A DNA stretch of 64,000 nucleotides from positions 15,996,001 to 16,060,000 of the forward strand of contig CP158635.1 of assembly GCA_050273025.1 (NCBI GenBank). The letters run 5' to 3'. Position numbers and translations under genes: made by a program. The notes under the pieces were generated by a model. That model was not told the origin of the DNA. It saw only the letters and a program-made list of their open reading frames with translations, and ran no database searches. The stretch comes from Cenococcum geophilum. Taxonomy: Eukaryota. This document shows positions 1 through 58,260 of the stretch, piece by piece (the stretch's first letter is position 1; every line of letters starts with the position of its first letter).

Positions 1-1
1 T

Positions 2-33099: not shown

Positions 33100-36000
33100 A
33101 ATAAGTAACAATATTAACCAAATTAATTAGACGGATATTACACCTCTAGTAAACGACTTGGAGATGCTAGGTATCTTTAAGGACGAAGATAAAGAGGAGG
33201 GAGATGGTGTTACGGATGCTTTAAGTACAATATTATAACTACTAGGAGAGGAGTTAAAAGAAGCTAGTTAGTTAATATAGGCACGGTCTAGGATGGAACC
33301 GCTAGAACTATATAATGAGGAATAGTAACTAAGGTCACATAACGTGCTATGTATTAAACGAGAGGAATAAGAGGAACTTACATACCTTATATATAACACG
33401 TATATTACGTATAAGAAGGATTTTATAGGAGTACGATTATGTATTTAAGGACCCTTAGTCCCTACCTAGATAGTTCCTTCCTTGTAGTGATTCTTAGAAT
33501 ATAATTAGAGTTAATCTATTGGGCAACCACTCTACCAGTTATTATTACGTTGTTAACTTACTTGCAATACCTACACACCTAGCCCATTAATAGGACCCAC
33601 CGTAGTTCTTGCTATAAGGTTCCGTTATAGGGAGCATAGGCTAAACTAAGGATCTTAGCAGTAGAAGACGTTTAAGCAAACTCCATAATAGAAATAATGG
33701 TTTAGAGATAGAGCTTATATAAATTGCGGAAAATAGGGTTATTTCGCTAAAGACTATAGAAGTGGTTAGAGTTACTACGCGGTAAAGGGAACTAAACTAA
33801 TAGTATATAACACACATATATAGAGGGATAATAGTGTACTATAAGGAATAAAAGAATATTTAATTAGAAGTTTTGCGTTTTATTATAACAATATATACTA
33901 AGTTCATAAGGACGCTAAGTATAGCGCAAGCTATTGGCTATAGGAGCCAAAATTAAAAGGACTTAAAGGAATTAGAGAGTTAGACAAAGAATAAAATTAA
34001 CTTTATAAGCTAGATTAAGATATTACAGCAATATATAAATAAAGATTAGTAACAATAACAATAGAGTTAGAGTACTTATTAATTAACAGCGATGAGGATA
34101 GTAAAGGAACTAACTGGAGGTATCTAAACCTTAATAACGCAATAAAAGTAAAGACTAAGACCGCTATAAAGCAAGGTTCAGTAACGGGTATTATAATACT
34201 ATTAGATACGGCATCTATTACTTTATAAGACGGAAGGAGTAATATCTAAAGATGATTAAGCAAGTAGATAACTGCTAGTACTAGCTTACTACTTAATAAA
34301 GGCAAAAGGCCAAAGGCTTAAGATTCTTAAGATAAGATAAGAGACAACTAAGATTCTTAAGATGAGATAAGGCATGCTTAAGGACCTACAATAGACGAAA
34401 ACCAATAGAGTAGAGTAATAGCTTAGTTTAGTAATATACAAATAAGCTTAGGACGAAGTTTCCTAAAGGTATAAAACTTTTAAGACAAGATGAATAAGAT
34501 CTAGGACTCTTAAGACAAGATAAGGACACTAGTAAAGCCTAGTTAGACTAAGGCTAGAGCTAAGCTTAAGAAAGAAGTAAGCTTAGGATTAAAGAATCTA
34601 AGGGACTAAGAATTTAGAATATAAATAAGGACACCTATAAGTAAGAAGCAAGAGACTTCTTTACAGATCAGAGAATCTGTAATATAAACAGCAGTTAGAT
34701 TAAGAGACAGATATATAGACCTAAAAGACTTACTAGGTAAACGAAGTGTTTAGCCTAAAGATTAAAAAGTTAATATAGCAATTAAGAAGTAAGAAGACTT
34801 TAAGGATCTAATTACAAGACGTAAGTAATAAGAAACCATAGATAAGTTTAGAGCAAGAATCCTTATATAGCAAGAACAGAAACTAAATAAGAGATTTAGT
34901 ATACTAGGTTATATATAAGATAGAGCGCCGGTATAAAAAGTTACTAATAGGCCGAAAACAGGCACGCCAAAAGCTAAGTGGCTTACTGAACTAGAAAATA
35001 AAGAGGATCTAGGGATTCTAACTAGGTTTAAAGAACGACATATAAAGGGCTGTTATAACGCAGTAATAAGAAGATACTTCCTTACAAATAAGCCGTATAC
35101 ACTTCAGCAGATATACTAAAAGTGGTATAAGCAGCAATACAATAATAAGTAGGAAGATTTCTACATATAGTTGGACAAGAGAGTTATCTAAAACTACCTA
35201 ATTACAGAAAAAGCAATAAATCATATTAAGGGAGCCTTAATTATAACATTAAAGGATCTAAAGAAACGATTAGAGGACTAGAAAAGCGAGAGATATATCT
35301 TAGTACCTATAAATAAAGTCGTAACGTTTAGATCAACATAACAGAGGTTTAAACTTAAAGATAAAGATGAGTTAAAAGTTAACCTAAAGCACCTAGCACA
35401 CTATACGCTATTATAGATTGCATGCGTAGACGATATATATAAAATGCATAAAAATCCAAAAGAAAAGAACCGGAAATACCCTATAAGGATATATTAGGCG
35501 CTAGATAAGCGATAGTATAGGAATGCTAAGTATATATACGGCTAGCATCTAGTAGAAGTTTAGGAGTTAGGAGACTTAACACTTTAACTAGGAAGATTCC
35601 TTACGGAAAAATGCTTAGACGGATAACAGTAGTAGGAATACCTAGAGAACACATATCTATAGCATATTAAGGATAAAAAGCGAATAAAGCATTAGCTAAA
35701 GAGTAAGCCAAGTATATAAGGATCTAGCAGCTAATAGTTAGGAAAAGTAGAGGCCCATAGAACCAGAGGGAGCTAGTAGTAGAGCCTTAAACCCTTAAAG
35801 GAATTTAAAAACAACACCTAAATTTATAAGTTAAATGGTAAGATTAGCAGTTTAAAGCATTAGTAGATAGTAGAGCAATAAGAAACCACATCTCACTAGC
35901 AGCAGTTAAAAGGATAGGGCTACTATATAGATAAAAGGAGCACCTTTATCTGCTAGTTACGATTTTAGGAGATCCGATAGCCTATAGAGAAGGTATTATT

Positions 36001-39000
36001 AATCTTAAAATAGGACCTATTTAAATAACCATTAAAGGGAGATAAATTAAGATGTCTTTCGATATATTACCATTAGGGAATAATAAGGCAGTATTAGAAA
36101 TACCTTAGTTACAGAAATATAATCTAAAGATTAATTAGGTTATAGGTTAGATCGATATTAAAAATATATAACGCCGCAAGATATAATAACAAATTAAGTT
36201 AGTATGGTACTAAGTTAGAGCGATATATAAAGAGACCAATTAAGGATTAAGCTATATACTAAAGAGATACCACAAATATGGCAAAAAGCTATAGTCACTA
36301 GAAAGTAAAAAGCTATTAGAATTAGAACCAGGAATAAGTCTAAAGTTTTTTCCAATCTATAAGCTTATTAAAGAAGAAGGTAGAGCGTTAAAAGAGTTTA
36401 TTTAGGAAAATCTTTAAAAGGGATACATTAGACTATTGCAGTCATTAGCGGGTTATCTAGTACTATTCATACCAAAGAAGAATAGAAAACTTAGACTATG
36501 CATTAGCTATAGATAGTTAAACAGCATTATAAGAAAGGATAGGTATCCTTTACCCTTAATTAGCGAGATCTAAGATAGGATAGGTAATGCGCAAATCTTT
36601 ACAAAGATAGATCTAAAATAGGCGTACTATCAGATTAGGATTAAGGAAGGCAACGAATAAAAGGCAGCTTTTAGGTTAAAGAAAGGACTATACAAACTAT
36701 TAGTTATACAATTTAGGCTTATAAACGCACTAGCAACGTTCTAAAAGTGTATTAATAATATATTAAGAGAACACTTAGATGAATTTGTTATAGTATACCT
36801 TAATAACATTATTATCTACTTAATAAACAAGGAAGAATATAGAGAACACGTTAAATAGGTCTTAAAGAGACTATAAAAAGAACAGATGCTAGTAGCAATT
36901 AAGAAATATAAATTCTTTACTAAGAAGACCAATTTTATTAAATTTATTATTAAACTAGGCCAATTTAGCATAGATCTAAAGAAGATTAAGGCTATAGTGA
37001 ATTAGCAAGAACTAGAGAACGTTACGCAGTTAAAATTATTTTTAGGGGTTTATAATTACTATAGAAGGTTTATAGCTTAATAGTTAAAGAATATTAAGCC
37101 GTTTACGAGATTAATAAGGAAAGAAGAATTATAGGTATAGAGAGAGGAATAAAGGAGACTATTTAAGGAAGTTAAGCAGTTATTTACCTAGGGGCCAGTT
37201 CTTAAAATCTATTAACTAAAGTTAGAGACGGTTGTAGAAACGGATGTATTAGACTATATACTAGGAGCGTACTTCCTATAGAAATATAAAGACGGATGGC
37301 ACCTAGTGGCATACTATAGTCGGAAGATAATACCACTAGAGTTAAACTATAACATCTATAATAAGGAGTTATTAGGTATAGTTACAGTATTAAAGAAATA
37401 GAGAGCATTCTTATAAGGTATAAAGAAACCATTTATAGTTAAAATGGATTATAAGAACCTAACGGGGTTCCTAACAATAAAAGAACTTAATCGCAGATAG
37501 GTTAGATAGGCAGAAATGCTTGCAAAATATTATTTTAAAATTTAGCATACTAAGGGTACTAAAAATGCACGAGCAGATGCTCTAAGTAGAAAGGCTAAAC
37601 TATAAAACGATAAGAAGCCATTAGGGGCTTTACTACGAAAAGACATAAACGGATTAATTAGGTATAATTATTTAAAAATTATAGCAATACGAAAAGAACA
37701 GATCTATAAATCACTAGAGAGTAATTAGATATAAAAGATCTAAGATATATAGGTAGAGGATCTAAACTTAAAGCAGTATAAAAACTAAAAAGTAATGTAT
37801 GTGCCAAGATCTATCGCAAAAGAGTTTATTAAGTCATTTTATAAGGGACTAACTTAAGGACACAACGGAGCTATAGGCTTAGTGTTAAGACTCTAGGAGG
37901 AGTATATTATTAACGGAATTTAGGGTATAGCACGGAAAATTACTAAAGAATATCTAGATTGCTAAAGGAATAAACTAATAAGGCATAAGCTATATAAAGG
38001 GCTATAACCTATTAAAATACTAGAGAGACTATAGGAGGTTATATTATAGGACTTTATTATTAAGTTGCTAAAGTTAAGAAATCCTATTACTAGACAAGAT
38101 TATAACGTAATCTTAGTAATAGTAAACAAGCTTATAAAGTGGGGATACTTTATAGCATATATAAAAGAAATATTAGTGGAAGATGTCGCTAGAATCTATA
38201 TTAAGGAAGTATTCGTAAGATATAGAGCACTAAGTAAGATTATATTAGATAGAGATTTAAGATTCGTAACAGTATTTTAGAAAGTATTTTTAGTAGAGTA
38301 AAAAGTTTAAGCAGTAACTTCTACCGCATATTATCTACAGACAGACGGTTAAACGGAAAGATTAAATTAGACACTAGAATAGTATCTAAGGTATTATATT
38401 AATTATATATAGAATAATTAGGTATCGTTATTACTAGTTATATAGTTTATATATAATATAACACTATAGAAAGGAATAGGTATATTACTATTTAAGGCGA
38501 ATTACGGATATAAGCTAAGGACCTTATTATCGCCATATTAAGTAAAAAAGATAAGTAGTAGAGCTAAGTAAAAGATAAAGGATTTAATAAATCTTTATAT
38601 AGACCTTATAGAAATAGCTAAGGGAGTATAGCAAAGAATAAAAAAGTACTATAACGCTAAGAGATCTAAGGGACCAGATCTTAAGGAGGGGGATAAAGTA
38701 TAGCTACTATATAAAAATTTTAAAAGTTAACGACTAAGTAAGAAGTTAGACTACGTTAAACTAGGACCTTTTAAAATTACGTAAAGGATTTCACCAGTTA
38801 CATTTAAGTTAAACCTACTAGTTAAGATAAAGATCTACCCTATATAACATATCGCAATGCTAGAACTAGCATATAGAGATATTAAACCATTAGTATATAA
38901 GGCAGACATGTATAGAGGGCAAGAGGAGGATAAATAGCAAGTTTTAAAAATCGTTAGTTATAAGGACGTTAATAATAAAACATAGTATAAAGTAAAGTAG

Positions 39001-39016
39001 ATAGGCCATAACGAGA

Positions 39017-39722
39017 CTACCTAGGAACCACTAAAGAACCTAAAGAACGCTATAGGAAAGGTACAGGAGTATTAGAAGAGAAAAGGTCAGGCAGTATAAA
39101 CAAAGAAGAATCGCTAAAGAACGAGCCACCTAAAGGGGACCTAAGAGGAGCGACTGCCAAACTACTTAGAGTTATTTCCATTACTATTAGAGGAGAATCT
39201 ATTCTTTTATTACTAAGTTCCTATAAACCTTATTTTATAAATTTCCACTCCTTAGAATAAACCTTTTTATAAACTTTTTTAAGATAAATTAGCTAAGTAG
39301 ACGCAGCTAAATAAGAGTTAAGGGCCCGTTGCTAAGCATTAGCAGCCTCCTTCTTAGCGTTACATAAATAATAAAGTTCCGCCAAAGTAACGGACAGTTT
39401 ATTATTAAGCTTTGTAGCAGTAGATTAAATATAAGACCCTATAATAAATTACTTAGGGAACTTAGAGACTATTAAGAGTAATAGGATATGTATACTTAGC
39501 GTTAGAAACGGAGCGAATATCGCAAAATAATTAAATATTCGCTTTAGTGCACTCTAAATATAAAGAGGGTTACTAAGATAAGGGACTCGCTAGTATAACG
39601 TAAACTAATTCCTCTTTCGTATAACGAGAATAAGGAAATAGTATAATTTCACTAAGAGATAATATTGTAGTAATGGTATGAGACTAATAAGCTATAGACA
39701 AAGAAAAAGATACTTTAGGTAT
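39017..39722 (-). pseudogene. Antisense Zn-cluster-like gene, copy C (coiled coil 7 codons longer)
   Basis: Same Cys pattern and intron position; divergent in-frame segment at ~39301-39405. Confidence 0.7.
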
Positions 39723-42428
39723 AATAAGTAATAATATTAACTAAATTAATTAGACGGATATTATACCTCTAGTAAATAACCTAAAGATGCTAGGAATCTT
39801 TGAGGACGAAGATAAAAAGGAGGGAGATAGTGTTATAGACGCTTTAAGTATAATGTTATAACTACTTAGAGAGGAGTTAGAAGAAGCTAGTTAGTTAATA
39901 TAAGTACGGTTTAGAATAGAGCCCGTAAAACTATATAATAAGGAATAGTAAGTAGAGTTATATAATATAATCTATATAATCTATATAATCTATAAGATCT
40001 ATAATAAAGTAAATAGAGTAGGCAGAGCAGACAGAGTAACGACTTTCTTAGAAGTATGGTTATGTATTTAAGGACCCTTAGTCCCTACCTAGATAGTTCC
40101 TTTTTTATAGTAATTCTTAGAATATAATTAGAGTTAATCTATTAGGCAACCACTCCGCCAGTTATTATTACGTTATTGACTTATCTGCATACCTATATAC
40201 CTAGCCCATTGACAGAACCTACTATAGTACTTACTACAAGGTTCCGTTACACTCTTATAACATTTATTCTACCTCTAACGCTAAGTATACGCGTCCTATT
40301 ACTCTTAGTAGTCTTTAAGTTCCCTAAGTAATTTATTATAGGGTCTTATATTTAGTCTACGGCTATAAAGCTTAATAGTAACCTAGCGTAGGCTCTTATA
40401 ATACGGAGTAAAAGGCCCTAAATACTCGCATCGCGGCGTCCACTTAGTTACTTCATCTTAAGAAGGTTTATAAAAAGGTGCGCTCTAAGGAGTAAAAACT
40501 TATAAAATAAGGTTTGTAGAAACTTAGTAATAAAAAAACGGATTCTCTTTTAACTAAGAAGAAAATAAATCCAAGTAGTTCAGCAACTACTCTTCTTAGG
40601 TCCCCCTTAGGTAACTTATTCTTTAGCAATCCTTTTTTATTAATACTGCCTAACCTAATCTCTTCTAATACTCCTATACCTTTCTTATAGCATTCTTTAG
40701 GTTCCCTAGTGGTTCCTAGGTAGTCTTATTATAGTTTATCCACTTAACCTTATACTATATTTTATTGTTAATATCCTTATAACTAACGATCTTTAAAACT
40801 TGCTATTTATCTTCTTCTTATCCTCTATACGTGTCTACCTTATAAACTAGTGGCTTAATATTCCCGTATGCTAGCTTTAGTATTACAATATATTATATAG
40901 GGTAGATCTTTATTTTAGCTAGTAGGTTTAACTTAAATATAACTAGTGAAATTCTTTATATAATTTTAAAAGGTCCTAGTCTAACGTAGTCTAACTTTTT
41001 ACTTAGTCGTTAACTTTTAAAAATTTTGTGTAGTAGCTATACTTTGTCCCCCTCCTTAAGATCTAGTCCCTTAGATCTCTTAGTATTATAATACTTTCTT
41101 ATTCTTTCTTATATATTTTTCGCTAATTCTATAAGGTCTATATAAAGATTTATTAATATATTTATCCTTTCTTTAGCTATGCTACTCGTTTTCTTCGCTT
41201 ATTATAGTAATAATGATATTCTTAGCTTATATCTATAATTTGCCTTAAATAGTAATATACCTATTCCTTCTTATAGTGTTACATTATATATAAACTATAT
41301 AACTAGTAATAACGATACCCAATTATTCTATATATAATTAATATAATGTCTTAGATACTGTTCTAGCGTCTAATTTAATCTTTCCGTTTAACTATCCGTT
41401 TGCGGATAATATGCGGTAAAAGTTACTACTCTTACTCCCTACTCTACTAAGAATACTTCCCAGAATACTATTATAAATCTTAAATCTCTATCCGATATAA
41501 TCTTATTTAGTGCTTTATATCTTATAAACACTTCTTTAATATAGATTTTAGTGATATCTTCTACTAAGATTTCTTCTATATATGCTATAAAGTAGCCCTA
41601 TTTAGTTAACTTATCTACTATTACTAAAATTATATTATGCTTTTATCTAGTAATAGGATCTCTTAACTTTAGTAACTTAATAATAAAGTCCTATAATATA
41701 ACCTCCTATAGTCTTTCTGGTATTTTAATAGGTTATAGCCCTCCGTATAGCTTATACCTTATTAGTTTATTTCTTTAGCAATCTAAATACTCCTTTATTA
41801 CTTTTCTAGCTATACCCTAGATTCCGTTAATAATATATTCTTCCTAAAGTCTTAATACTAAGCCTGTTGCTTTATTATGTCCTTAGGTTATTCCCTTATA
41901 GAAATCTTCCATAAAATACTCTACGATGCTTTTTAGGATGTACTTTGTTCCTTAATTTATATATATATATATATCTATAGATCTTTTAGCTATACTTTTA
42001 GAATTCTTTATACCTAAAAGCTCTCTAGTGTCTTATAGACTTTTTCTAGTTCGTTACCCTCTTAAGTTGCTGCTAGCTTAGGGTAATTATATTTAATAAA
42101 TCTATCCTTATCTTTACGTAGTATTGCTCCTAATGGCTTCTCGTTGTTCTATAGTTTAGCCTTTCTACTAAGTGTATCTACCCTTGCATTCTTAGTTCCC
42201 TTAGTATACTAAATTTCGAAATAGTATTCTATAAGTATCTCTACCTATCTAACCTATCTATAATTAAGTTTCTTTAGTTATTAGAAACCCCATTAGGTTC
42301 TTATAATCCGTTTTAACTATAAATAGTTTCTCTACGCCTTATAAGAATACTCTCTATTTTTTAAGTACTGTAACTATACCTAATAACTCCTTATTATAGA
42401 TATTATAGTTTAACTCTAGTAGTGTTAT

Positions 42429-45400
42429 TATAAGGGATATTATTGCGGACACCTTAGGTTGCCCTTAGGACAACCCCTAGACGCCCCTCAAATAGTCGCC
42501 GGTTACGTGCCGGAGGCACGTACCCGTAGTATATAGTCTCTACAATTCTAGAGGCCTTACCTCCTTAAGGATTCGTCTCTCTTACTAATCTATCCTGTTC
42601 TAATCGTGTCCTTATAGCCCCCTGTCTATAAGATCCCCTTACATTTAAATCCTTTCTACTCTTTTTTGGAAGGGTAGTTGGCTTTAAGGACTAGATTGTT
42701 TATTTATATCTTTTGTTTATAACTACTATTCTCCCTTAAAATCTTATAATAACCTAAATGGAAACTCTACAGATACTTTATGGAAAGCCGTCGCGCAAAG
42801 GTAGGAAGGTCCCTCTAATAGCGAGAGATTGCGATAATATAACCCTCTAGGTAAGACGGCTAAACGAGCCCTAATACCTAGATGCTCTAGGAGCTTAAAG
42901 ACTCTCGCACACCTACGGTTACCGCTAAGGAAAACGCAGACACCCTTTATAACGGTTATAACGCTGCCAGAAAGCAACCGGAATCTCTCTAGCCCCACCT
43001 AAGCTAATTAGAAGATTAAGCGCCAAAGGCAACTCTAAGATCTTCCCCTAAGCCAGAAATGCTAGAGGAATATACTAACGCGTCTAACTAGGGAACTAAC
43101 CGGAATCCTCCCGGAAGACTACCGGCCTATAATTAGTATAGTGGTGGTGTATAAACTGCTTATAAGCTAAGCGGGCCTATCCCTTTAGGTAATCTAAGCT
43201 AATTACTAACTTAAGACCCGAGCCTTGTTGGGAAGCCTACACTAACTACTAGTACTAACACTACCTCTATAGCAGGAGCCTCCCTAGGCCTAAGTTTAGA
43301 AGGTTAAGAGCCCTATACCAATCTCCTCTAAGACGGATATTAGGAAGCTATTGTAACGCTCTTAGAAGCTATATGGGAGGAAGCTACTAATAAATATATT
43401 AGAACCCTTTAAGGGTAAATTTAGATCTAGTAGGGTCTAATCTAAGCTAGGCAAATTCTTTTACAACCTAGTTAAGGCTAAGGGCTTTTTAGGAGCTACC
43501 TAATACCTACCTAAGTAGGTATAGAAGACTTAGAGAGTTATCTACGCTATAAATAAAAAAAGGATATAGACTAACTGGCTAAGGCCTCTGGTAGCCTAGA
43601 ACTCCGCCATAGACCCAACGCCCAGTAGTTAGACGATTGGGTTTATAAGGTAGATAACTTCTTTAAGATGCTAATAATACGAGATAATACCAAAGAGCGT
43701 ATACGCTAGATTATTAGCAAGATTAAAGACCGATTGCTAAACCAGATCGCACTTAATCAGCTTAATAAAGAGCAAATTACTATATAGCTATAGCTGTAAA
43801 CCTTCCTAAAGAAATGGACTTAAGATCCGTATATTATATAATATAATAATATAGAGCTATTCTGGAATCGGATACAGCTAGACCGCTATAACTTCCGCCA
43901 GTTTATAAACTTTATAGAAACTTATGCTTAGTAGATAGATCTAAAACCCTTTAAAAATAAGGACGGTAGCATCTATAAAAAGGAGAAGATTGGGTTTATC
44001 TAGGCTAGAATTAAGCTAGTAATTCGTAACAAAATAAAGCGCGTGGGAGCCTTATCGCGGATTACTATATATGCGGATTTTAAACGAGTAGTTCTAAATG
44101 CTAAAGATGCGGTAAAGAACTAAACCTCTTCTAGTAGAAAGCCTGGGGGTTATTAGAAGCGTGGGCACTTTAGTAGTAATATAGGGTAGACCTAACCTTT
44201 AAAGAAGCCGTTCTTAAAGAGAACTTTAAAAGGGTTAAAGTTAGGAACCTTAAATAATGGGAAAGACTTTTAGGGCCAACCTAACACCCGTCTAGCACCT
44301 TTACGGGAACACTCTAAGAAGTTAAGAGAAAACTCTAAAGGTAGATTTTATTGGAAAAATAAGTAGGGCGATAATCGCACTAATAATCTAAAAAAAGAAA
44401 AGCCCTAGTTATAGATCTCTCCTAGCTATAACTAGGGCAAGATACGGAAGAAGAGACTCTCTATATTGCTGTTAAGCTAGAAATAATACTCCCTATAGGT
44501 AAGGTATGTTAGTTCTAAGCACTATATAACAGCGGCGCTAAAATTAATCTTATATAATATAATTTAGTAAAAGAGTATAAACTTACCCCATTATAAAGAT
44601 GGCAGAAACTTATCGCAGGCTTCTTAGATAAACATCGGATTAAACTATATAGTGCCTATAAGCTTATAGTGTTAGTAGCCGACATACATAACCGTACTAA
44701 GGTAGTTGGCCTACAACCCTTCTAGGCGGCTGACTTCGTAGGTTATAACCTTATCCTTGGATACCCTTAGCTAGCGGAAGCAGATCCTAAGATACGCTTT
44801 AAAACTAGAGCCTTTAAATAATAGAATAATAAAGATTTAAAAGGGCGTATATTACTAATAAGCCTAAAGGACATTTTAGAGAATGTAGCCCTAGGCGAAA
44901 TAGTATACACTTTACACCTAAAGAAGTATCAGATCTAACCCCTATTTAATAGCAAGATGGGTATAGAGCCTAGTATAGGTGATAACCCCTCTATAATGAA
45001 GACCCTATAGGGAACTGCCGGATAGGTCGCGGAGACATTATAGGGAGGCGGCGATCTTAAGGATCTTACGAGATACTTTAACCGTTATAAGTTACTCTGG
45101 CTTAAGCAATATGCGGAGAGTATACTACGGCATCTTAAGCGCTGCGTCAAGGATTTCCTTACCCTTTACTAGCTACCGCATAAAACGGTATAACGTACGG
45201 TGGCAACTATGTATAAGTAACTACTATAGCGCACGACGCTGCCCGTAAGTATTCTGAGGGAGCTTTAGAACCTACCTAATAATAACGCGGAGGACAAACG
45301 CGACCCTAATTTGTTAAATATTTTAGCAGGCCTAAGGGACTTACTAAGGGTATTTTCGGGCAGGAGAGCTAAAGTCCTACTATAAAACTCGGAGTACGAT

Positions 45401-48400
45401 TATATAATTAATCTAAAAGAAGGTAAATAACCGCCGAACCTTCCTATCTATAACCTCTCGCGTAAAGAGCTTAAGATCCTATAGGAGTACCTCAATAGCT
45501 TACTAGAAAAGGGATGGATCTAGCCTAGTAAGTCGCCATTAGGCGCGCCGATTCTCTTTGTTTTAAAACTAGATAGAACTATAAGGCTATACATAAACTA
45601 TCGCGGTCTTAATAAGATTATAATTAAGAACCGTTACCTACTACTACTAGTTAGTAAAATGCTAGATTAACTATCTAGGGCGAAGATCTTTATAAAGTTA
45701 GATCTATAAGACGCCTATTATAGGCTCCGTATTAAAGAAGGGGATAAGTAGAAGACCGCTTTTAAGACCTAATACGGCCACTTTAAGTATCTGGTGATGC
45801 CTTTCGGGCTAGCTAATGCGCCTATAATATTCTAATTATACATTTATAGAGCCTTAGGGGGACTAGTTAACTATATATGCGTCGTCTATTTAGATAACAT
45901 CTTAATCTACTTAGAAGATAAAGATTAACACAAGTAATACGTCCGCAAAGTGCTGGAACGTTTAGATAATTAGGGCCTCTACGCTAAGGCGTTAAAGTAT
46001 ATCTTTAATACTAAGCAGGTTAAGTTCCTAGGTTACATTATAACGCCTATAAGTATAGTTATAAACCTAGTACGAGTATAGATAATCTAGGAGTGGCCGA
46101 AGCTAGAGAGCTACTAGGATATTTAAGTATTTTTAGGCTTTGCCAATTTCTATAGGCGCTTTATCTATAACTACTTAGACGTCGCCTAATACCTATCTAA
46201 CTATATTACGGAAGCTTCCTAAGACCTAACCTAAGGAGCAAAAAGCTTAAAGGTAGTAAGGAAGAAAACTAAAAAGGGACTAACTAAATGGTATAAGCTA
46301 TGGTTATGGCCCAAAAAGGTTTAAAAGGCCTTTTAGGAACTTTGCGTAAAGTTTATAGAAGCTCTAGTGCTGCGGCATTTCAACCCAGATTAGCCATTAA
46401 TAATAATTACTAATGCATTAAATTTTGCCCTTGTTGGTATCCTACTACAACCCAATAGGCATTTGGACGCTACCTAGCTCTATTAAAGACTAGTAGCATT
46501 TTATAGCAGAAAATTCTAGGGACCTAAAGTTAGGTATTATACCCACGATAAGGAACTGCTGGCTATAGTTAACTGCTTTAAATAGTGGCGATACTACCTT
46601 AAGCACGCGAGCCATACCACTCGTGTACTCTCAGATTACTACAATCTACGCTACTTTATAACTACGAAGGAGCTTATACCTTAACAAGCTAGATAGGTAG
46701 AGGAGCTTACATAGTTTAATTTTAAGATTAAATATAAGCTAGGGGAAAATAACCCTACTAATAGACTGTTATAACGGCTAGACTATACTAAAGGCTTTAA
46801 AACGGGAGAAGGAAAATAGATAATAGATATCTTACTCCCTATATTACAGAACAAGCTTTAGGTGTGGGATACTTAAGCACCTACAGCTCTATACACTAAG
46901 TCTTAGGCGGTGCAAGCCCTATTAGTTTCCACTAACGTTTTGGTTGGTACCCGGTCCGTTGCCGATAAGGGTCCGAATATACCTAGATAGGACGTCCTTA
47001 ATATATTCTTAGAACCTAATAATACACTATCCCTAATTGCTAAGCTATCCCCTTAAACTAATAGCAAAGCTATAGAGCAATCAGAACTTGGAGCCCTATA
47101 ATAACTAAAGGACTTTAACCTTGTAGCGGCCTTCCTAATATACGCGTATTGAAGAGTTATAAGATCCATAGTACCATCTAGTCTTATACTTAGAGTAGTA
47201 TAGGACGAAATAGCTTTTACCTAGGAACTACCCAAAAGGTTAATAGATCTTATCCATAAGGTATAACGGAGGGACGCTTCCTATACTATCCTTAATGCGG
47301 AAGTAGACCGGAAACGTAACGGAAAGGAAGCTACTAGGCACTACTATTGGGAACTAGACCTAATGGGCCTACTACATAGAGGTGGCAAGGTTTGGGTGCT
47401 ATAAGAAGTAAATCTATAATAGAAGATTCTTATAAAGAATTACGATAATCCTTTAGGCGGCCACTATAGTTAAGCAAAGATAGTGGAATTACTTTAACGT
47501 AAATACTATTGGCTAAGGCTTAATTAGGAAGTAAAGGAGTATATTAGCTATTATAAGAAGTGTTAAGTATATAAGATCCGTAGGCACAAGCTATAGGGTC
47601 TACTTAAATTAGTTCCCCCCACTAGTAAGCTATAGCGATATTACGCTATAGACTTTATTATAGATCTCCCACTATCTAAAGATGGCTAAGGACGAATATA
47701 TAATTCGGTCCTTGTACTTATTAATAGGTTTTTAAAGTACGTCTAATACCTTTCTATTAATAAGACGATTAACGTATAAGAGCTCGCCAACCTAATTAAG
47801 GAGAAATGCTTTCTTAAAGTAGATTAGCCGTACTCTATTATTACTAATAGGGGCAGCGTCTTTATAAGTTAATACTGGTCGGATCTATACTTCTATTTAA
47901 AGATAGACCACCGTTATAGTACGGCTTTTAACTATAGATGGATGGGCAAACGGAACGCCAGAACTAGGAACTGGAGTCTTACCTATAGATGTATTTAAAC
48001 TACTAGTAAGATAACTGGTGCGAGCTACTTCCGTATGCGGAGTATGCTTATAATTTAAAGTAATATATATTGTATAAGTATGCACCAATCTAGATTGCCT
48101 ATAGCGTCCGACTATTTGGGTTTAATAGTATACCCAACAATTACTGGCTAAGGCCGTATGATTAGTTATAGGATCCTACCGGGAAGTTTAAGGACATCTA
48201 CTAGAGAGTATAAGGATACCTTTAGAAATGGGAAGAGTAATAGAAGTATGTAAAGCAGAGCCTATAAGATGCCTAAGAGTAGTAAAGACTTTGGTATAAC
48301 CGCAAGCACTAAGATAAGCATTTTGGAGTAGGTAATGAGGTTCTATTACGTTTAACGAATATTAAGACCCGTTGACTATTAAAGAAGCTTAATATAAGAT

Positions 48401-51321
48401 ACCTAGGTCCCTTCTAAGTTAAGGAATGAATTGGTAAGCTAGCCTATTGTCTCTAGCTACCCCTATCTATAGCCTATATATATTTAGTGTTTTATATAAA
48501 CCTACTAGAGCTATGGCATAGACTATTACCGGAAAAGAACTTCCGTCTAGGCCCAATTAAACACCTTAAGGTGGTGGGCGAGCGGTATAAGGTTGAAGCT
48601 ATACTATGCTATAAGTCTGTTAAGAATAAGCTTTAATTTGAAGTTAAATGGCTAGGCTAGCCTGCTAAGGACTCTATATGGGAACTAGAGGATTACCTTA
48701 ATTATTGCGAAGATATTCTAAAAGAATACTGGGACTAAGGTCCATAATCTGCAAATTATAGAAAGCGCTCTAATACTATGGTGTTATTGCGACCTATAAA
48801 GAAAGCTCGCGAAAAGAGTAAATAGGTTAAATTAGATATGGAACGGACAAGCTCCGGAAACTATAAGGATTAGGGCTATAGCCTAAGGCAGGACTGGTCC
48901 TTAGCCTTTTCACATATATAGTATAGAATTAATAGGGCATTTTGCTAAAATTGTATACCTATTAATTAATTTATACTAGGAATACTGTTTTTAGGGCTCC
49001 TAAGCCCTTTCTAAAAGCCTTATAAGGCCTTTCTAAGCACCTAATCGAGGTCCTCGATTGCTACTATATATAAAAACGAATCCCAAAAGTCTAAACCATA
49101 AATGCCTAATCTAAAAAGCCACTATACCTTATCCTTAGGAGTAGGATTAGTATTTATCGGCCCTCTAAGGGATGGCTAACGAGAATAAGATCTAGAACCC
49201 TTGGTAGGGGTATGGGTAGGCATAAAAATAGGGGTAGGACGATAAGGTGTAGCTAAAGCAAAGACTCTTAAACGCTTAACACTAATATTAGGTCTAAACC
49301 AATACTAATAAAGCTTCTAGGGAGTAAGCTTATAGTTAATAAAGACACGCTTAAGCCTAGAATAAACAGAGACGTTAGCTAGCTGGCATAGTCTAGAACT
49401 ACCGAGATCTTGCTACGGCAACTATTAGTTACCTATTCGCTAGGTACCCAAAGGGTAACCTACCTAATACCGTATTATGTTATGCTCTTTTAAAACTTAA
49501 CGCGCATACGCGAACTTCTTCCTATAGTAGACGGCAACCTTCTTCTTATTACCCCTATCCTGTACCCTATCCTTAGTATACCAACCTTACTCTCGCATTA
49601 GGCGTTGCTGGCTAGCTTGCTAAGAATTATAGGCGGTGTAGATGGCTGTAGCATAGTCTTAAATGCGACCCAGATATTTAGCATTAGCGCTTAAATGGGA
49701 AAGAGCCCGGGCGATATAGTAGTTAAGGACATTAAAGGAACGTCGCCACTTAGGCCTAGGCTATTAAAGTCAGTAATGGAAATCTATTAAGGATAGAAAA
49801 GCTCACCTTAACGCAACTGCCGCTCTTAGTACGCATGCATTAATTATAAGGACTAAAGGTATTAGATCTGACGTAGTGCGTCTTATTATAAGCCTCTAAA
49901 ATCCTATTATTAGATTTCTGGTCTTTTAAAGACGTGCAGGCAAAATCATTTAGGTAGGACTAGCACTAGTTACGAGTTAGTGGGGGTTAAGGTTCTATGT
50001 GTAAAGGCAAGGCCAGGATACGCTGTGGAATTTACTTAAAAGAGTAGTTAGTAGGAGAACGAAGAGGCATATTAAATTAATAATGAAAAAGAAGAAAATC
50101 TTAATGATATATTAAAGATACGTCTAAATTAGACGAAGGTTAATAATGGGAAGTAAGGTGTTAAGGAAAAGGATTAAGCTCGATAAGTAAAGTATCTTTA
50201 TACTTCACCGTCTAATACCCTTCTAGTAAATAGCCGCAACCTTGCCAATATAACTCCGTTATAATAGCGCTATTTAAAAGGAAGGAAACACGCGTATAAG
50301 TTATTTAACTATTACTTCCTTATAAAAACTGACTACGCGGCCGGGGGAAGGTAATTAAGACGTTAAATTAAAGACATATATAGGTTAAATTAAACCTAAA
50401 ACAATACTATAGTATTAAAGAACAACGTTATAGACGTTCTTAATAATCGTATAATAGCTACAATTACTATTACAAAATGTCCCTGTTTACTAGGCAGTAG
50501 AGCTACGCCAAATATATAGTATAGGACTACTAGATTTAAAACTATATGCACTAAATATTAAGAGATAAGTCTCTTTAACTAACTAATTAATACCTCAACT
50601 GTATCTAATAGCCTAAGGGCAAATGCGGGAGCAATGCGTTAGTAACATAGGGGATTATAAGAAAAGGATTATAAGAAAGGATTATAGACTATATCTTAGC
50701 AGTTAAAGACAACGGCAAGCCAAGGCTCTGTACGTTAAATCCCATACTAAAGGTTCTACGGAACTATACTAGAATACTAAATTGCCTATAATACTCGTAA
50801 TTAATTATAGACCGGCATAAAGGCTTAAAAGCAGAGTTATATAAAAATCCCTATATTAGCCCAAGTAGTCACTAGCATGCTTCCGGTAGGCTTCCAATAG
50901 GTCTCCTAGCAATCCTCGCGTCTTTTCTCTAGTTATGTTTTTTCCTTATTGAGGTTTTTTAGGAGTTTAAAGTAGGGGTTAGATAAATAGATAATATATA
51001 GCGGTATACCAATATCTCTCCAAACCTCTTCCGGGACGAGCCCTTATAATCTCCCTACCGCAAGGTAATGGCGATCGGGGGCCGACCGCAAGAAGGGGGG
51101 GGGCAATGTAAGGGATATTATTGCGGACACCTCGGGTTGCCCTTAAGACAACCCCCGGACGCCCCTCGGATAGTCGCCGGTCACGTGCCAGAGGCACGTG
51201 CCCGTAGTATATAGTCTCCACGATCCTAGAGGCCTTACCTCCTTAAGGATTTGTCTCTCTTACTAATCTATCCTATTCTAATTGTGTCCTTATAGCCCCC
51301 TGTCTACAAGATCCCCTTATA
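42429..51321 (+). mobile_element. Ty3/Gypsy chromovirus family 2, copy E, 8893 bp, inserted in RNase H of B
   Basis: 215-bp LTRs 42429-42643 and 51107-51321. TSD GTTAT at 42424-42428 and 51322-51326. PPT AGAAGGGGGGGGG ~51091. DSGA ~44530, YLDD ~45887, DGQTERQN 47941, chromodomain ~48580-48740, then a ~2.3-kb 3' extension. Confidence 0.95.
48960..50070 (-). pseudogene. Antisense two-exon gene in element E with a six-Cys motif
   Basis: ATG 50070 and an 88-codon exon 1. Intact intron 49806-49761 (GTGAGC...CTGAC...TAG). Exon 2 is ~265 codons with only TAA/TAG stops. The 3' end is approximate. Confidence 0.65.
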
Positions 51322-52347
51322 GTTATTTTCCAACTATAGTATGCCACTAAATGCTATATATTCTTATACTTCTATAGTAAACATACTCCTAATATAAAGT
51401 CTAATATATCTATTTCTATAACCGTGTCTAGTTCTAGTTAGTAGATTTTAAGGATTGGCTTCTAGGTAAATAACTCCTTAAGTTCCTTAAATAACTTTTT
51501 TTACTTATCTCCCTATACCTATAGTTCCTCTTTCTTTATAAGCCTAGTAAAAGGTTTAATATTCTTTAACTATTATACTATAAACCTCCTATAGTAGTTA
51601 CAAAACCCTAGAAATAACCTTAACTGCGTTATATTCTCTAGTTCTTACTAACTCATTATAGCTTTAATTTTCTTTAGGTCTATACTAATATAACCTAGTT
51701 TAATAATAAATCTAACGAAATCTGTTTTTTAATAAAGAACTTACATTTTTTAATTACTACTAGTATTTATTCTTCTTATAGTCTCTTTAAGACCCATTTA
51801 ACGTGTTCCCTATATTCTTCCTTAGTTATTAAGTAGATAATAATGTCGTTAAGGTATACTATAATAAACTCATTAAGGTATTCTCCTAATATACTATTAA
51901 TTCGTTTTTAAAACATTGCCGGTGTATTTATTAATCCAAACTATATTACCAATAGTTTATATAGTCCTTCTTTTAATCTAAAAGCTGCCTTTTATTTATC
52001 GCCTTCCTTAATTCTAATCTAATGGTACACCTATCTTAGATCTATCTTTATAAAGATTTATATATTACCTATCCTATCTTAGATTTCACTAATTAAGGGT
52101 AAAGAATACCTATCCTTTTAAGTGATGCTATTTAACTATCTATAGTTAATATATAGCCTAAGTTTTCCGTTCTTCTTTAGTACGAACAGTACTGGATATC
52201 CTACTAATAACTGCAATAGTCTAATATATCCCTTTTATAAGTTCTCCTAAATAAACTCTTTAAGTGCTCTTAACTCCTCTTAAGTAAGCTTATAGGTTAA
52301 AAAGAACCTTAGACTTATTCCTAGTTCTAACTCTATCTTATAGTCCT

Positions 52348-55300
52348 TGTTACAGGACACCCCCGTAACACCTTGCACATATCTACCTGTTTCCACCGAC
52401 TTAGCAATTAGAGACTAACCGCGAAATAGCAATCTAACGGCAATCTAATGGCAATCTAACGGCAATCTACGGCATTCTGCTATATTCTGCCAAGTTTCAC
52501 CAAATTCTGCTAAGTTCTGCCAGGACTACAACCTAAACCCTATTCTGCCTATGTACGTGTTAACTAAGCAACTAAGTTAACGATATATGCCCTTTCTTCC
52601 CGTTTCCCTACCTTCTTTCCTTATACAACGTCTTAACTTTATCACGTAGTTTATATATATAGCTTAATAATACCTACTTCGCTATATATTATTACCGCTT
52701 ATACTTACTCCGTAACACTACGTTACGTTAAAAACTTACACTACCCTCCGAAAATACAGAACGACCCTAAAGCCCCTATAACGGCCGACGCTATTATAGC
52801 CGCACTCTGAGAATAATTAGTAGGTATACAGAAGTCCTTTATAGACGCCCTTATATAGCACTAAGCCACTTTAACTTAATAGTAAGCTAAATAAGAAGCA
52901 CGATAATAATAATTAATTAAAGCACTTTAAGAAGAAGTCCGTATCCTTAAGATGCCTATATTAAGGCCCTAAGACTAAATGCTATCTCTAGAGATAAATA
53001 CGCGGAACGCAAGCCCCGAATTAGTAGTAGTTACTTACCCTATAGAGCCGACTACCGCACTAAAACAATCTGAGAAACTACTAGACCCCCTAGTATTTAC
53101 TGGTAAATAATAAGAGCTTTGGTTATTCTTAAGCCGGCTTAAAAATAAGCTAACCGGTAATACTAACCGCTACCTAACCAAAGCTAACCGACTCTATTAC
53201 GCCCTAAGTTAACTAAAAGGAGACGCAGCTAACCTTATTAAATCTCTCTAACCAAACTTAGTATAAAGCCTAGTTACACTTCTTAAAGCTATATACGGTG
53301 ACCCAAACCGCCAAGCTACTGCTTAAAGAAAGATAAACTAAATAACTTAAGAAAAGAAAAGTTTCCTAGTATACTTCTCCAAATTTAACTACTACGTAAA
53401 GGAAATAGGCTAGAATAACTCCGCACTAATTAATAGCCTTATTAAATCCCTAAGCCCTAAACTAAAAACCTCCCTAATAGGCGTAGACCTCCTGGAAACT
53501 TTTAATGCCTATATAAACGTTATTAACAAACGGTATAATGATATACTACGCCTTATACTAAAGCCCGTTTATTAGTATAATATAATAACTCTGTAAACGC
53601 CCACTAAGTTATTGTCTTAACCTAAGCACCTTAACGCTATGGATATTAACACTGGGAACCTAGGATATGCCCTATTAGGGTCCTCTAAATAAGAACGACG
53701 TATTAAGCTAGGCCTTTGCTTTAAATATAAAAGCGGCTCCCACCTCTTAAACTACTGCTTTGTTCCTATACCCTAAAACGATTTACGAATAGCTAGCACT
53801 AGCAGCCGTTTACTATATCGATCTTCCGGTTACCGTCCCCAATCTTTATCTAGTTCTAGCCCTACGTCTAGTAAGCACCACTTATGAGGATAAAGCTCCA
53901 ACTAACGTCCTATAAGAACCCCGCCCTAATTGCCTTTAAAAGGAAGGTCCTAGAGCTAAGTCGCTTTTTGGGACGGCTCTGCTATAGGATCTCGTTAAAC
54001 GTATTTAACGTTACAAACTCTGACTCTTAGGACTGTAGTATAACTATTAACTACCGCCTTTAGCAGAATAGTTAAAAGGCTAATGCTTGAATTCTAATTA
54101 ATATAGGAGCTAGCGGTATAGGATTTATTAACAGGATCTTTGCGTAAGATAATGGTTTTACCTTAACCCCCCTTAACCGGCATATTAATGTATTTAGATT
54201 TAATAGCAAACGCACCGTCTTAGGCCGTATTACCTATATGGTAGCCCTAAGACTCTAATACCTAAACCATAAAGAACTAATTAAGCTTTTTGTTACTACC
54301 CTAGGTTACCTAGTAATCCTTAGATAACCCTAGATAAAGCTATATAAAGTAACCATTAATTAGGATAACCTTAAGCTTCTATTTACCGCCTCCTATTATA
54401 AGTAGAAGTGTTATATAATATACCGCCTTAACCCTAAACTAAAATCTAGGAAATCCGCTAAGATCCACCAGCCTAAGATTTCCACTAATATCTACCCCGC
54501 GCCTAAGAAATCCACTAAATTCCACTAACCTAGGAATTCCACTAAACTCTACGAATTGGCCCTAAGCACTGTACCGCCCTAAGCTAAGCAAAAGCTTAAG
54601 CTCTATACACGAAAATACCAAAAGGACTAGTATTCCACTATAAAAAGGATTCTTAAAGAACCCGAACCTAAATCTAACACTAACTCTATACCTAATACCG
54701 AACTTAAACCTGAATAAGAAACTATGGATAATCTAAGCGAGCTTGGTACCCTAGATATCCATATAATTAGAGCTACCCCGCTAGCGTAACTTGCTAAGAA
54801 ACCCGAATATATAATCTTCGCTGTTACTATAGCTGATATTAAAAAGGCCTTAGCACCAAAAAAGCACACTAACCCTGCTACGAAGGTACTAGTAGAGTAC
54901 TATAACCGCCTAGAGGCATTCTTATAGAAGGAAGCTAATAAGCTACCGGAATACTAATTGTACGACTATAAGATTATACTTGAAGAAGGAAAGCAGCCTA
55001 GATTTAGACCCTTATACGGGATGTCCTAAAATGAACTCTAAGTACTATAAAAGTATTTAGATGAGAACCTGAGTAAAGGATTTATTAGAGCAAGCTTATC
55101 GCCTATAGCCGTACTAGTAATCTTTGTTAAGAAACCCGGCGGCAGTTTGTGCTTTTGTATAGACTACCGAGCTCTTAACGCTATTACCATTAAAAACCGA
55201 TATCCGATCCCGTTAATATAGGAAATACTAAACTAACTAAGTAAGGCTTGCTACTATATAAAGCTTAATATTATCTCTGCATTTAACCGCCTCCGTATAG

Positions 55301-58260
55301 CAAAAGGAGATAAATGGCTTACTGCATTTCGTACTCGGTATAGACTATTTAAATATTTAGTAACGCCATTTGGCCTCGTAAACGCTCTAAGCTTGTTTTA
55401 ACATTATATAAATAACACCCTACGCCCCTACCTGGATATCTTCTGTACTGCTTATATTAACGATATCTTAATATATAGTAATAACCTGACTAAATATTGG
55501 AAATACGTTAATTTTGTCCTATAAGCCCTGCACGGAGCTAGTTTATAATTAGATGTAGATAAATGCGAGTTCTATAAAACGGAAGTCCTATACCTTAAAC
55601 TCCTTATTTCTATAAACAGTATATAAATGGACCTAAAGAAAGTTAAAGTAATTATAAACTGGTAAGAACCTAAGAACGTTAAGGACGTAAGAGCCTTTAT
55701 AGGATTTACTAATTTCTACTAACAGTTTATTGATAACTTCTCTGCCTTAGTTTTACCCCTTATAGCTCTAACCCAAAAGGATAAAGTCTTTGTCTTTAAT
55801 AAGGAATGTAAGAAGGCCTTTACCTATCTAAAGATTATGTTTACTACTGCGCCCATGCTCTAACACTTTGACCTAAACCGAATAAGTGTTATAGAAGCCA
55901 ACTTATCTAACTATGTTACTAGAGGCATCCTGTCTTAATATAACGAGGATAGAGTATTGCACCCTATAGCATACTTCTTAAAATGACTAAGCCTAGCCGA
56001 ATGTAACTATAAGATCTACGATAAGGAATTATTAACTATTATTAGATATTTTAAACAATAGCGACCTAAACTAGAAGGCGCTGGATTTCTAATTAAGGTC
56101 CTTAGCGACTATAAGAACCTACAGTACTTTACAACCACAAAACAGCTAAGTCATTATTAGGCCCGCTGGTTAGAATATCTGTCTTATTTCTAATTCTTAA
56201 TTACGTACCGCCTAGGCGTCTAAGGCTAGAAGCCTAATGCTCTAACTTGACGCTCGCAAGACGCGCCAGCCTTAGAAGAAGCGCGCTCTTACCAAAATTA
56301 GACCCTACTTCGCCCTAAACTATTTAACCCTTCTACTAAAGATCTTACGGTATACGTCCTTAAAATAACTGATTAATTGATTAAACAGATTATAGTTAAT
56401 AAATACCTAAATAACGAGTTTATTTAAGAGACACTTAAGCTAATGTAAGATGGCATTAGACGCTCTAAAAAGATTTCTCTAAATAAATATAAAGCCTATA
56501 AAAACCGCTTATATTACTGGAACCATCTAGTTATCCCTAATTATAATAAGCTTAAGCTTAAACTCCTTAAACACGTATATGATCTACCTGTTGCCGGCTA
56601 CCCGGGCCAAAAAAAGACCCTAGAACTACTTTAATGGGAGTATTATTAGCCGAATATGCATAATATAATATAAAGGTACGTCTCTAGCTGCCACACCTAT
56701 TAATAAGCTAAAGCCTCGCATGAGACGTATAACGGTCTTTTAAAGCCGCTGCCTGTTCTAAACTAAAGATGGAGGGATATCTTAATTAACTTTGTTGTTA
56801 ACCTTCCTAAGAGTAGAGGCTGCACGAATATTATAGTAGTTGTAGACCGACTATCTAAAATAAAACACTTAATCGCCTGCCCTAATATATTAACGCCTGC
56901 TATTGCCTAACTATTTTTAGATTACGTATAGAAACTCTACGGACTCCCTAAAATGATTATCTCTAATAAAAACAGCCAGTTTATCTTAGTATTCTGGAAA
57001 AAACTAACTACTTAACTCCGTATTAAAGTACTGTTGTCTACCGCGTATTACCTAAAAACGGATAACTAAACGGAACGCGTAAATGCTATAATGGAATAGT
57101 ATATTTAGATATACACGTCGTATTTATAGGATAATTGGATTAACTAGCTTGTATTCGCCAAGTTTACTATAAATAACTCCGTCTCGGAAACTATAAAAGT
57201 CTCCCCGTTCCTAGCTAATTACGGCTAGTACCCACAAATGGGTTTTAAACCCTTTAGTAATATTCCTTACCCCGCTTATCACGCCTTATAAATTGTAGAA
57301 GCAAATAAATTTGTAGAGAAGATAGAGGAACTATAACAGTTCCTTACTAATAAGATAATATGGGCTTAATCTGTCTATAAAGCCGCAGCGAATAAGAAAT
57401 AAACCCTAGCACTGGCTTACTAAATTAGTAATTTTGTCTGGCTAGATATAAGAAATCTAAACATAAAACAACCTACTAAGAAACTTAATTAGAAGAACGC
57501 TGGCCCTTATAAGGTTAAAAAGGTTATCTCTCCTTATACCTACCAATTAAAGCTCCCTAATACGGTTAAAATCCACCCCATATTCTATACGTCAGTCCTC
57601 CGCCCTACTACCCCCATATTAAACGCCCTGCCTAGATAGATATAAGACCCTCCCCTACTAGTTGAAGTGGATGGTGAGAATAAGTACTTTATTAAAAGAA
57701 TTGATAATATTAAGTACGATAAACGGAAACGCTAATATATATATCTTATAAAATGGAGAGGCTTTACTAAGTCCTTATGGGAACCCGTTAACTCTATAGG
57801 ACTTATATAAGCCGCAGAAGACTTTTATAAACTCTACCTAGAACTACCATAGCCCTATCTCGCAGAAGCTTAAGTTTAAAGGGGGGGTACTGTTACGGGA
57901 TACCCCTATAACACCTTACACACGTCCACCTGTTTCCACTAACTTAGCAATTAGAGACTAACTGCGAAATGGCAATCTAATGGCAATATAATAGCAATCT
58001 AACGGTAATCTACGGCATTCTGCTATATTCTGCCAAGTTCCACTAAATTCTACTAAGTTCTGCTAGGACTACGACCTGAACCCTATTCTGCCTATATACG
58101 TGTTAACTAAGCAACTAAGTTAACAATATATGCCCTTTCTTCCCGTTTCCCTACCTTCTTTCCTTACGCAACGTCTTAACTTTATCACGCAGTTTATATA
58201 TATAGCTTAATAATACCTACTTCGCTATATATTATCACCGCTTATGCTTACTCCGTGACA
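52348..58260 (+). mobile_element. Ty3/Gypsy chromovirus family 3, copy F, 5913 bp, inserted in pol of B
   Basis: 370-bp LTRs 52348-52717 and 57891-58260. TSD GTCCT at 52343-52347 and 58261-58265. CCHC knuckle ~53711-53758, KKPGGSL.FC.DYRALN ~55130, YIDD ~55453, chromodomain ~57680-57840, G-rich PPT 57879-57887. Confidence 0.95.

Follow-up and report, generated by a model that had tools for sequence, protein, structure and literature searches.

Sequence evidence for a three-exon antisense gene with a six-cysteine domain in a RIP-mutated chromovirus family from Cenococcum geophilum

Long terminal repeat (LTR) retrotransposons are commonly regarded as requiring no genes beyond gag and pol. The locus described here raises the question of whether such an element can also keep, behind pol and on the opposite strand, a spliced gene of its own. 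The window (the whole analysed stretch, 64,000 nucleotides of Cenococcum geophilum, assembly GCA_050273025.1, contig CP158635.1, positions 15,996,001 to 16,060,000 of the forward strand) is a nest of fungal LTR retrotransposons mutated by repeat-induced point mutation (RIP), in which the GC content falls from about 0.49 to about 0.30 beyond the first 9 kb. One of them, element E, is a Ty3/Gypsy chromovirus in which 2.3 kb remain between the pol stop (at about 48820-48822) and the 3' LTR. An initial annotation of the window had placed in this region a spliced minus-strand gene for a six-cysteine protein of the Zn-cluster type. The spliced antisense gene proved real, whereas the exon 2 structure proved wrong and the Zn-cluster label found no support. 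We assign a probability of roughly 0.88 to the reading that E-family chromoviruses carry a genuine three-exon protein-coding gene opposite gag-pol, and that the window copy of this gene was killed by RIP.

Judged by sequence comparison, the minus strand of E between pol and the 3' LTR holds an inactivated copy of a genuine gene with three exons. It occupies 49122-50070, on the strand opposite gag-pol, between the end of pol at 48822 and the start of the 3' LTR at about 51109. The layout, drawn up with the help of an un-mutated copy of the family (L004, described below), is as follows.

42429-51321, plus strand: element E, a complete RIP-mutated Ty3/Gypsy chromovirus (from its LTR pair, Pfam matches and target-site duplication).
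46847-48822, plus strand: 3' part of E pol, with integrase, SH3 and chromodomain (from tblastn with the intact L004 pol, and Pfam).
48823-49121, no strand: non-coding spacer from the pol stop to the 3' end of the antisense gene (the L004 frame closes with TAG, with more stops beyond).
49122-49412, minus strand: exon 3, with 96 codons plus the stop in the window copy (mapped from L004 2576-2283).
49413-49463, minus strand: intron 2, 51 nt, in frame (from the L004 sequence; homologues are unbroken across it).
49464-49760, minus strand: exon 2, 99 codons, with 5 premature stops in the window copy; the predicted helical part (from a homologue profile and L004 mapping).
49761-49806, minus strand: intron 1, 46 nt in the window and 47 nt in L004 (GTGAGC...CTGAC...TAG).
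49807-50070, minus strand: exon 1, 88 codons from the ATG at 50070; the six-cysteine domain (from the homologue profile and L004 mapping).
50071-51108, no strand: non-coding stretch from the gene's ATG to the 3' LTR, putative promoter and 5' untranslated region (no codon phase, frame-breaking indels).

Metagenome contigs were scanned with a 55-nt, transition-tolerant pattern taken from exon 1, and 121 loci of the family were recovered. Flanking sequence of up to 3 kb was available for 80 of the loci, and a single locus proved free of RIP mutation. In four sequencing runs the post-pol region was highly repeated, with about 17-80 contigs per site and all 30 bins covered. The locus that escaped mutation, L004 (positions 1-4320, from a metagenome contig), has a GC content of 0.49, a TA/AT index of 0.70 and a (CA+TG)/(AC+GT) index of 1.33. 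Its pol is open over 661 codons, to position 1987, and its antisense gene is intact over 284 codons. On the minus strand, the ATG at 3235 opens exon 1 (3235-2972, 88 codons), which is followed by intron 1 (2971-2925, 47 nt), exon 2 (2924-2628, 99 codons), intron 2 (2627-2577, 51 nt) and exon 3 (2576-2283, 97 codons plus TAG). Intron 2 reads GTAGGT...CTGAC...TAG and contains TAG, TGA and TAG stops, this being the single TGA inside the gene frame. The minus-strand ATG at 50070 and the 88-codon exon down to 49807, both already in the initial annotation, are thus confirmed by L004, as they are by the homologue profile given below. The proposed intron at 49806-49761 was also right; L004, the indels and the phase shift support it, though its motif alone is within chance. 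What had been read as a single exon of about 265 further codons actually comprises two exons, of 99 and 97 codons, separated by an in-frame intron of 51 nt, and coding does not run to 48960: the gene ends at 49122, and 48960-49121 is non-coding.

Of the 204 substitutions that separate the window copy from L004 over 1455 nt, 183 are RIP-type transitions (C>T or G>A), 15 are transversions and 6 are reverse transitions; a further 7 positions are gaps. The single indel in the exons is an in-frame loss of 3 nt, in the acidic tail encoded by exon 3. The 13 premature stops of the window copy (5 in exon 1 and 3 in exon 3, besides those of exon 2) correspond in L004 to codons for Gln (8), Trp (3) and Arg (2), written CAA/CAG, TGG and CGA. 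Of the 285 positions aligned, which are 284 residues plus the stop codon, 206 are unchanged. The window copy of the gene is dead, killed by RIP. Exon 1 ancestrally had nine Cys codons (C9 and eight in the cluster). Five Cys-to-Tyr changes have occurred in the window copy, where C36, C45, C78 and C86 are intact, four rather than the three counted before. Y39, Y61, Y66 and Y75 are all Cys in L004, which bears out the earlier proposal that three tyrosines, at positions 39, 66 and 75, were ancestrally cysteines. Among 121 other aligned copies, Cys is present at position 39 in 17, at position 66 in 62 and at position 75 in 8, and two un-mutated versions from other sources (P0003 and P0005) have all cluster cysteines. 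L004 and the other copies were looked at for ancestral tyrosines, TGA stops and frameshifts, and the gene was not refuted by what they contained.

The damage to the other copies is of the same kind. L017, for example, differs from L004 by 169 C>T/G>A changes and 1 transversion. Since nearly all the differences between L004 and many of the mutated copies are C>T/G>A changes, L004 must be close to the un-mutated progenitor, and the E family may still have, or may recently have had, an active master copy. A protein search with the 172-aa open reading frame (ORF) of L004 gave 19 matches, all of the same family and many part-mutated; with exons 2-3 it gave one match.

Whether the sequence is coding was judged from differences beyond the reach of RIP (transversions and, with L004 as the reference, T>C or A>G) that are common to at least two copies. 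Of the 121 fetched copies, 109 align over the antisense gene, the fishing pattern itself being inside exon 1, and these 109 were used; 12 of the 121 were dropped for having more than 2.5% transversions. Over the three exons, the non-RIP variable positions fell 9/8/57 on codon positions 1/2/3 (p 1.6e-14), with 4/3/11 in exon 1, 4/2/27 in exon 2 and 1/3/19 in exon 3; transversions alone gave 4/4/28. The controls were flat, both in the flanks (11/12/18 and 5/6/5, the latter being the spacer at 48823-49121) and for RIP-type changes in the exons themselves (139/114/117). The reading frame changes across intron 1, and the phase of the variable positions shifts with it as splicing predicts. By allele, the antisense gene had 68 synonymous changes against 21 non-synonymous ones, which relative to the non-RIP opportunities gives an omega-like ratio of 0.086; the same count over 394 codons of pol gave 30 synonymous and 19 non-synonymous changes, a ratio of 0.14 and phases of 8/10/31. 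Judged by these counts, purifying selection kept the gene as constrained as pol during the diversification of the E family, and RIP killed the copies later.

The indels common to at least two copies follow the same layout. Exons 1 and 2 have none, and intron 1 has nine types, including indels of 1, 2, 5 and 7 nt. Those of exon 3 are four multiples of three and two non-multiples, each of the latter in just 2 copies. The first 270 nt of the 5' flank contain ten shared indels, none of them a multiple of 3, and the 1.1 kb of L004 from the ATG to the 3' LTR (3206-4320) has non-RIP variable positions without codon phase. An upstream extension of the L004 ORF, 78 codons before the ATG, was tried as coding and rejected: it is frame-shifted between un-mutated copies and has no codon phase.

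Distant relatives of the protein support the same structure. A phmmer search with L004 exon 1 against 1.84 billion representatives returned 33 matches, comprising 24 distant homologues, 5 pieces of the same family and 4 repeat proteins that we took as spurious. The distant homologues are 30-48% identical and cover nearly the whole domain. In the 25 aligned sequences C36, C75, C78 and C86 are invariant, C66 is present in 23 and C39 in 22; these are the six cysteines of the initial annotation, whose pattern C-x2-C-x26-C-x8-C-x2-C-x7-C is exact for E. The homologue family follows C-x2-C-x(17-30)-C-x8-C-x2-C-x7-C, the second spacing of E being 26, and C45 and C61 are extra cysteines of the E lineage. 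The predicted Met is followed by Pro in P0024, P0025 and P0046, all starting MP there, and the other homologues start with MA, MS or MV or have an N-terminal extension.

Five full-length homologues (P0025, P0026, P0045, P0046 and P0047, 242-397 aa) are unbroken across both splice junctions, where they read ...C.xV/P.FRR... and ...RYQ/QGLG..., and in tblastn they reach L004 2319-2442, in exon 3. A profile was built from these five and P0043, with no E sequence in it. On L004 it matched 3235-2966 (model 1-92, 1e-24) and 2918-2406 (model 93-236, 1e-17), and on the window 50070-49798 (from model position 1, 6e-14) and 49757-49458 (i-E 1.4e-5). The profile switches frame at model position 92/93, in agreement with tblastn. 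As the homologue profile matches both exon frames, the ATG, the strand and both splice junctions are confirmed. P0047 adjoins clusters of Ascomycota hypothetical proteins in the Atlas, and on these alignments the E protein is a member of a family that other fungi also have. A search of viral contigs for related loci found none.

Two of the homologues differ at the junctions. P0046 and P0043 have an insert of 19-20 residues exactly at intron 1, and P0043 (182 aa) ends right after the RYQ that closes exon 2. Both look like unspliced gene calls; if so, both intron positions would be conserved in distant relatives.

From its cysteine pattern, exon 1 probably encodes a six-cysteine, zinc-binding domain without an assigned fold, and not a Zn-cluster. 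AlphaFold2 gave for exon 1 a model, without metal, with a predicted local distance difference test score (pLDDT) of 79.8, in which short helices start at both C-x2-C pairs. After the cysteine domain the protein would have a helical middle part and an unstructured tail, a prediction of low confidence. A two-copy complex prediction for residues 30-170 of P0025 scored 0.00 and was uninformative on dimerisation. In the homologues P0038 and P0041, C39 and C66 are lost together (Ser and Gly) and the other four cysteines are kept; this joint loss hints at a common metal site, which C39 and C66 may share.

The Zn-cluster label would make the protein a transcription factor of the Gal4-type Zn(II)2Cys6 binuclear-cluster class, with DNA bound by a dimer. 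The consensus of this class is C-x2-C-x6-C-x5-12-C-x2-C-x6-8-C. The antisense protein family resembles PF00172 in having six conserved cysteines in two C-x2-C-containing halves, then helices, and three of its five spacings were counted as fitting the consensus (x2; x8 within 5-12; x2; x7 within 6-8). The predicted helices at both C-x2-C pairs, the helical stretch after the cluster and the joint loss of C39 and C66, which is expected with a shared metal site, fit as well. However, the spacing between the second and third cysteines is 26 in E and 17-30 in the relatives, instead of 6. Pfam Zn_clus (PF00172) matched 0/25 family members even at E up to 10, and none of L004 exon 1 and 11 homologues at E up to 1, and the sequence and fold searches of the PDB returned no Gal4-like chain. 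We consider this identity unlikely; the E domain at most works like such a cluster.

Other domain leads were faint. DUF3716 (PF12511) also matched 0/25 family members at E up to 10; the lead to it was one weak Atlas neighbour of P0047 (score 0.82), with DUF3716 in 28% of its members. The same domain is also present in two genes of REP9, a class II transposon of Zymoseptoria (PMC8232023), and fungal transposons may often carry small Cys-rich proteins. With exon 1 as the query, the Atlas yielded only weak IBR/RING-like leads of at most 0.90, with recognition below the bar.

How the gene would work can be outlined as a proposal. It would be transcribed from its own promoter, located in the roughly 1 kb between the ATG and the 3' LTR or in the 3' LTR itself. 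Being in antisense orientation in the genomic RNA, the introns would escape the spliceosome and so be retained in the template for reverse transcription. The cysteine domain would bind zinc, and the protein would act on behalf of the element; its likeliest role is that of a nuclear regulator, or a cofactor, of expression or integration. Regulation of the element's transcription would be in line with the plant antisense ORFs, for which such a role is suspected, and the deltaretroviral antisense proteins, for which it is known.

A number of points weigh against the reading of a genuine gene that serves the element, or against parts of it. Transcription, splicing and translation of the antisense gene are deduced from DNA alone, and zinc binding and a regulatory role are guessed from the arrangement of the cysteines. 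The fishing pattern that yielded the 121 copies lies inside exon 1, and copies that lack the gene are invisible to it. The stop density of the window copy, 13 in 284 codons, is near the 6.5-8.8 per 100 codons of E pol and only somewhat under the 7-10 per 100 of non-coding frames. The GTGAGC...CTGAC...TAG motif is the only such site in the window, yet 0.59 are expected by chance and 14/100 shuffles contain at least two matches; as this is within chance, the 46-nt stretch alone proves nothing. Pfam yielded no family match, and none to a zinc family above noise, for the L004 exons or the 25 family members, and the best match of the PDB sequence profile, a PHD finger at E 0.26, was taken as chance. 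No like fold was found by Foldseek at E <= 0.001 or by VIA-align, whose best Z was 2.5, the models searched being metal-free. The full-length model of P0025 is poor (pLDDT 52.5), with three helices at 86-167 and a disordered tail. Finally, the sole hint that the homologues ride on retrotransposons is a weak match of P0026, whose C-terminal extension resembles an antisense reading of the L004 integrase (25.8 bits, reached by 0/200 shuffles).

The antisense gene could instead be a host gene captured as a passenger by transduction, with no role for the element, its conservation reflecting the source host gene. Introns at places common to the distant homologues (the P0046 and P0043 inserts and the end of P0043) are compatible with this, and capture of cellular genes is a known source of additional ORFs, according to the available passages of PMC11963269. 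Against this, the excess of synonymous changes is found among E copies and sub-lineages themselves, at an omega-like ratio of 0.086, as low as that of pol. Moreover, the gene is intact beside an intact pol in the un-mutated copy, and one distant homologue, P0026, is seemingly antisense to a Gypsy integrase. We regard capture without function as improbable, clearly more so than the Gal4-type identity. That there is no gene at all, only a chance pattern in RIP-mutated DNA where all stops are TAA/TAG and Tyr codons abound, accords with the missing TGA in all frames, the window-only stop density and intron motif within chance and the lack of a Pfam match, but is refuted by the intact ORF of L004, the codon phase (p 1.6e-14), the 24 distant homologues and the E-free profile that matches both exon frames, and can be dismissed.

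With a genuine E gene as the preferred reading, the next question is whether antisense genes of this kind have precedents. Zhao et al. 2011 (Virology 417:248) reportedly described one, brtn, in Boty-like elements. It is an additional antisense gene of the Boty-like (BcGypsy1) Ty3/Gypsy elements of Botrytis cinerea, dated to 2011 in the available passages of PMC8365987, PMC4227169 and PMC5987419. Like the E gene it is an extra gene opposite gag-pol in a fungal Gypsy/chromodomain element, a likeness that concerns the descriptions in those passages. Antisense extra genes in fungal Gypsy elements are thus of a kind already known; new for E, compared with brtn, are the three-exon structure, the six-Cys pattern, the omega-like ratio of 0.086 and the distant homologues. 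In the literature covered, we found nothing on this protein family, its introns or its selection beyond citations of brtn and plant reviews, the supplements of PMC8365987 on further extra ORFs of Botrytis Gypsy elements being outside that coverage.

Plant elements offer a second precedent. Antisense ORFs lie between pol and the 3' LTR in maize Grande, rice RIRE2 and the Retand elements of Silene and other plants, the last with a TRP28 domain (available passages of PMC11963269 and PMC7264820). They share the place and orientation of the E gene, are kept in most copies of their lineages and are suspected of a regulatory or DNA-binding role, in the part of PMC11963269 at hand. The E gene has two introns, whereas introns go unmentioned for the plant ORFs in that part of PMC11963269. 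The plant ORFs also belong to another host kingdom and another protein family, TRP28 (PF04195) being unmatched in the E family by Pfam. In deltaretroviruses, HBZ is a spliced gene and its product is a bZIP protein. HBZ of HTLV-1 and APH-2 of HTLV-2 are antisense genes near the 3' LTR that encode nuclear regulatory proteins, as described in the same available passages (PMC11963269). They resemble the E gene as minus-strand genes near the 3' LTR of a retroelement, but have no sequence relation to it.

The gene is surrounded by a RIP-mutated element. E has a 5-bp target-site duplication, GTTAT (42424-42428 and 51322-51326), and LTRs (42431-42647 and 51109-51325) that are 91% alike. The Pfam matches in its plus frames are RVT_1, RT_RNaseH, Integrase_H2C2, SH3_Tf2-1 and Chromo. 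Reverse transcriptase (RT), RNase H, integrase and chromodomain in this order, with the LTRs and the duplication, identify E as a Ty3/Gypsy chromovirus, and its TA/AT index of 1.74 and (CA+TG)/(AC+GT) index of 0.51 as a RIP-mutated repeat. The 3' part of its pol matches the L004 pol with 70-72% identity in two tblastn pieces, 46847-47950 and 47938-48822, and a polypurine tract (51080-51105) lies at the far end of the 50071-51108 stretch.

At about 47938-47950 the window pol changes frame, as seen from the Pfam domains, which switch frame there, and from the overlapping tblastn pieces; this indicates an indel besides the RIP damage. Between 42000 and 52000 of the window hardly any TGA codons occur in any of the six frames (0-2 per 100 codons, mostly 0). 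The initial annotation had observed that the stops in the antisense frame are only TAA and TAG, which is true; it is true of every frame here, and since TGA is nearly absent from all frames of RIP-mutated DNA, such stops are no sign of a former ORF and carry no weight. Pfam searches with read-through minus-frame translations of the window (E and copy B of the family described next) found no match.

The window contains two further Gypsy families with which E can be compared. Family 1 is dissimilar to E, as had been claimed: at the DNA level the likeness is limited to a single 79-nt match in RT, and the pol proteins are 25-36% identical. The claim that family 1 has an antisense Cys-rich stretch at the same place holds too, such stretches being present at 32450-33240 (minus), 10440-11400 (plus), 38900-39870 (minus) and 40240-41200 (plus). 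A partial reversal of RIP from five copies, read by eye, gave roughly C-x2-C-x6-C-x13-C-x2-C-x8-C, after which the frame changes and the reading is rich in Lys and Glu. The family-1 gene resembles that of E in position and orientation in a chromovirus and in a cysteine cluster followed by an apparent intron, here with a Lys/Glu-rich stretch. It differs in its cysteine pattern and in a post-pol region of about 0.8 kb, against 2.3 kb in E. E-type profiles did not match any family-1 copy of the window or the partly de-mutated reading: scores were negative and only 'CSxCAK' aligns. The family-1 stretch had no Pfam match, the mutated peptide found no homologue among longer proteins, and no un-mutated family-1 copy was found.

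The third family is represented by element F, which had been said to lack any such region.

52348-58260: element F, with the duplication GTCCT, inserted in the same family-1 copy as E.

This proved correct, as the F pol reaches 57837, 54 nt before the 3' LTR at 57891, and F is without an antisense module. The family-1 Gypsy copy that received both insertions lies on the minus strand at 40252-62102 and is split by them. Other family-1 copies lie at 9604-18019 (minus), 25833-33629 (plus) and 33208-40249 (plus, sharing an LTR), with fragments at 23723-25834. In self-comparison, about 450 nt (10001-10454) separate the 3' LTR of family-1 copy A from its post-pol region, a segment absent from copies B and C.

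If the reading of a genuine three-exon gene holds, DNA alone has revealed, in a fungal chromovirus family, a third gene on which selection was as strong as on pol, and an undamaged copy of it exists. Its antisense orientation would account for the presence of introns in a retroelement. The way in which it was recovered, by transition-tolerant fishing and the codon phase of non-RIP differences, retrieves gene structure from repeats wrecked by mutation and is reusable. With Cys-rich antisense genes in two dissimilar families and none in a third, the need for such a protein becomes a testable question. We hold it as a tentative possibility, not much better placed than the Gal4-type identity, that unrelated Gypsy families of one genome independently gained intron-bearing antisense genes for small Cys-rich, metal-binding nuclear proteins, needed for their own expression or for holding off genome defence, and that the E-type protein represents a new transposon-borne family with a zinc-binding fold. 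If this were true, fungal chromoviruses would be 'complex' retroelements, with a counterpart of the deltaretroviral antisense regulators.

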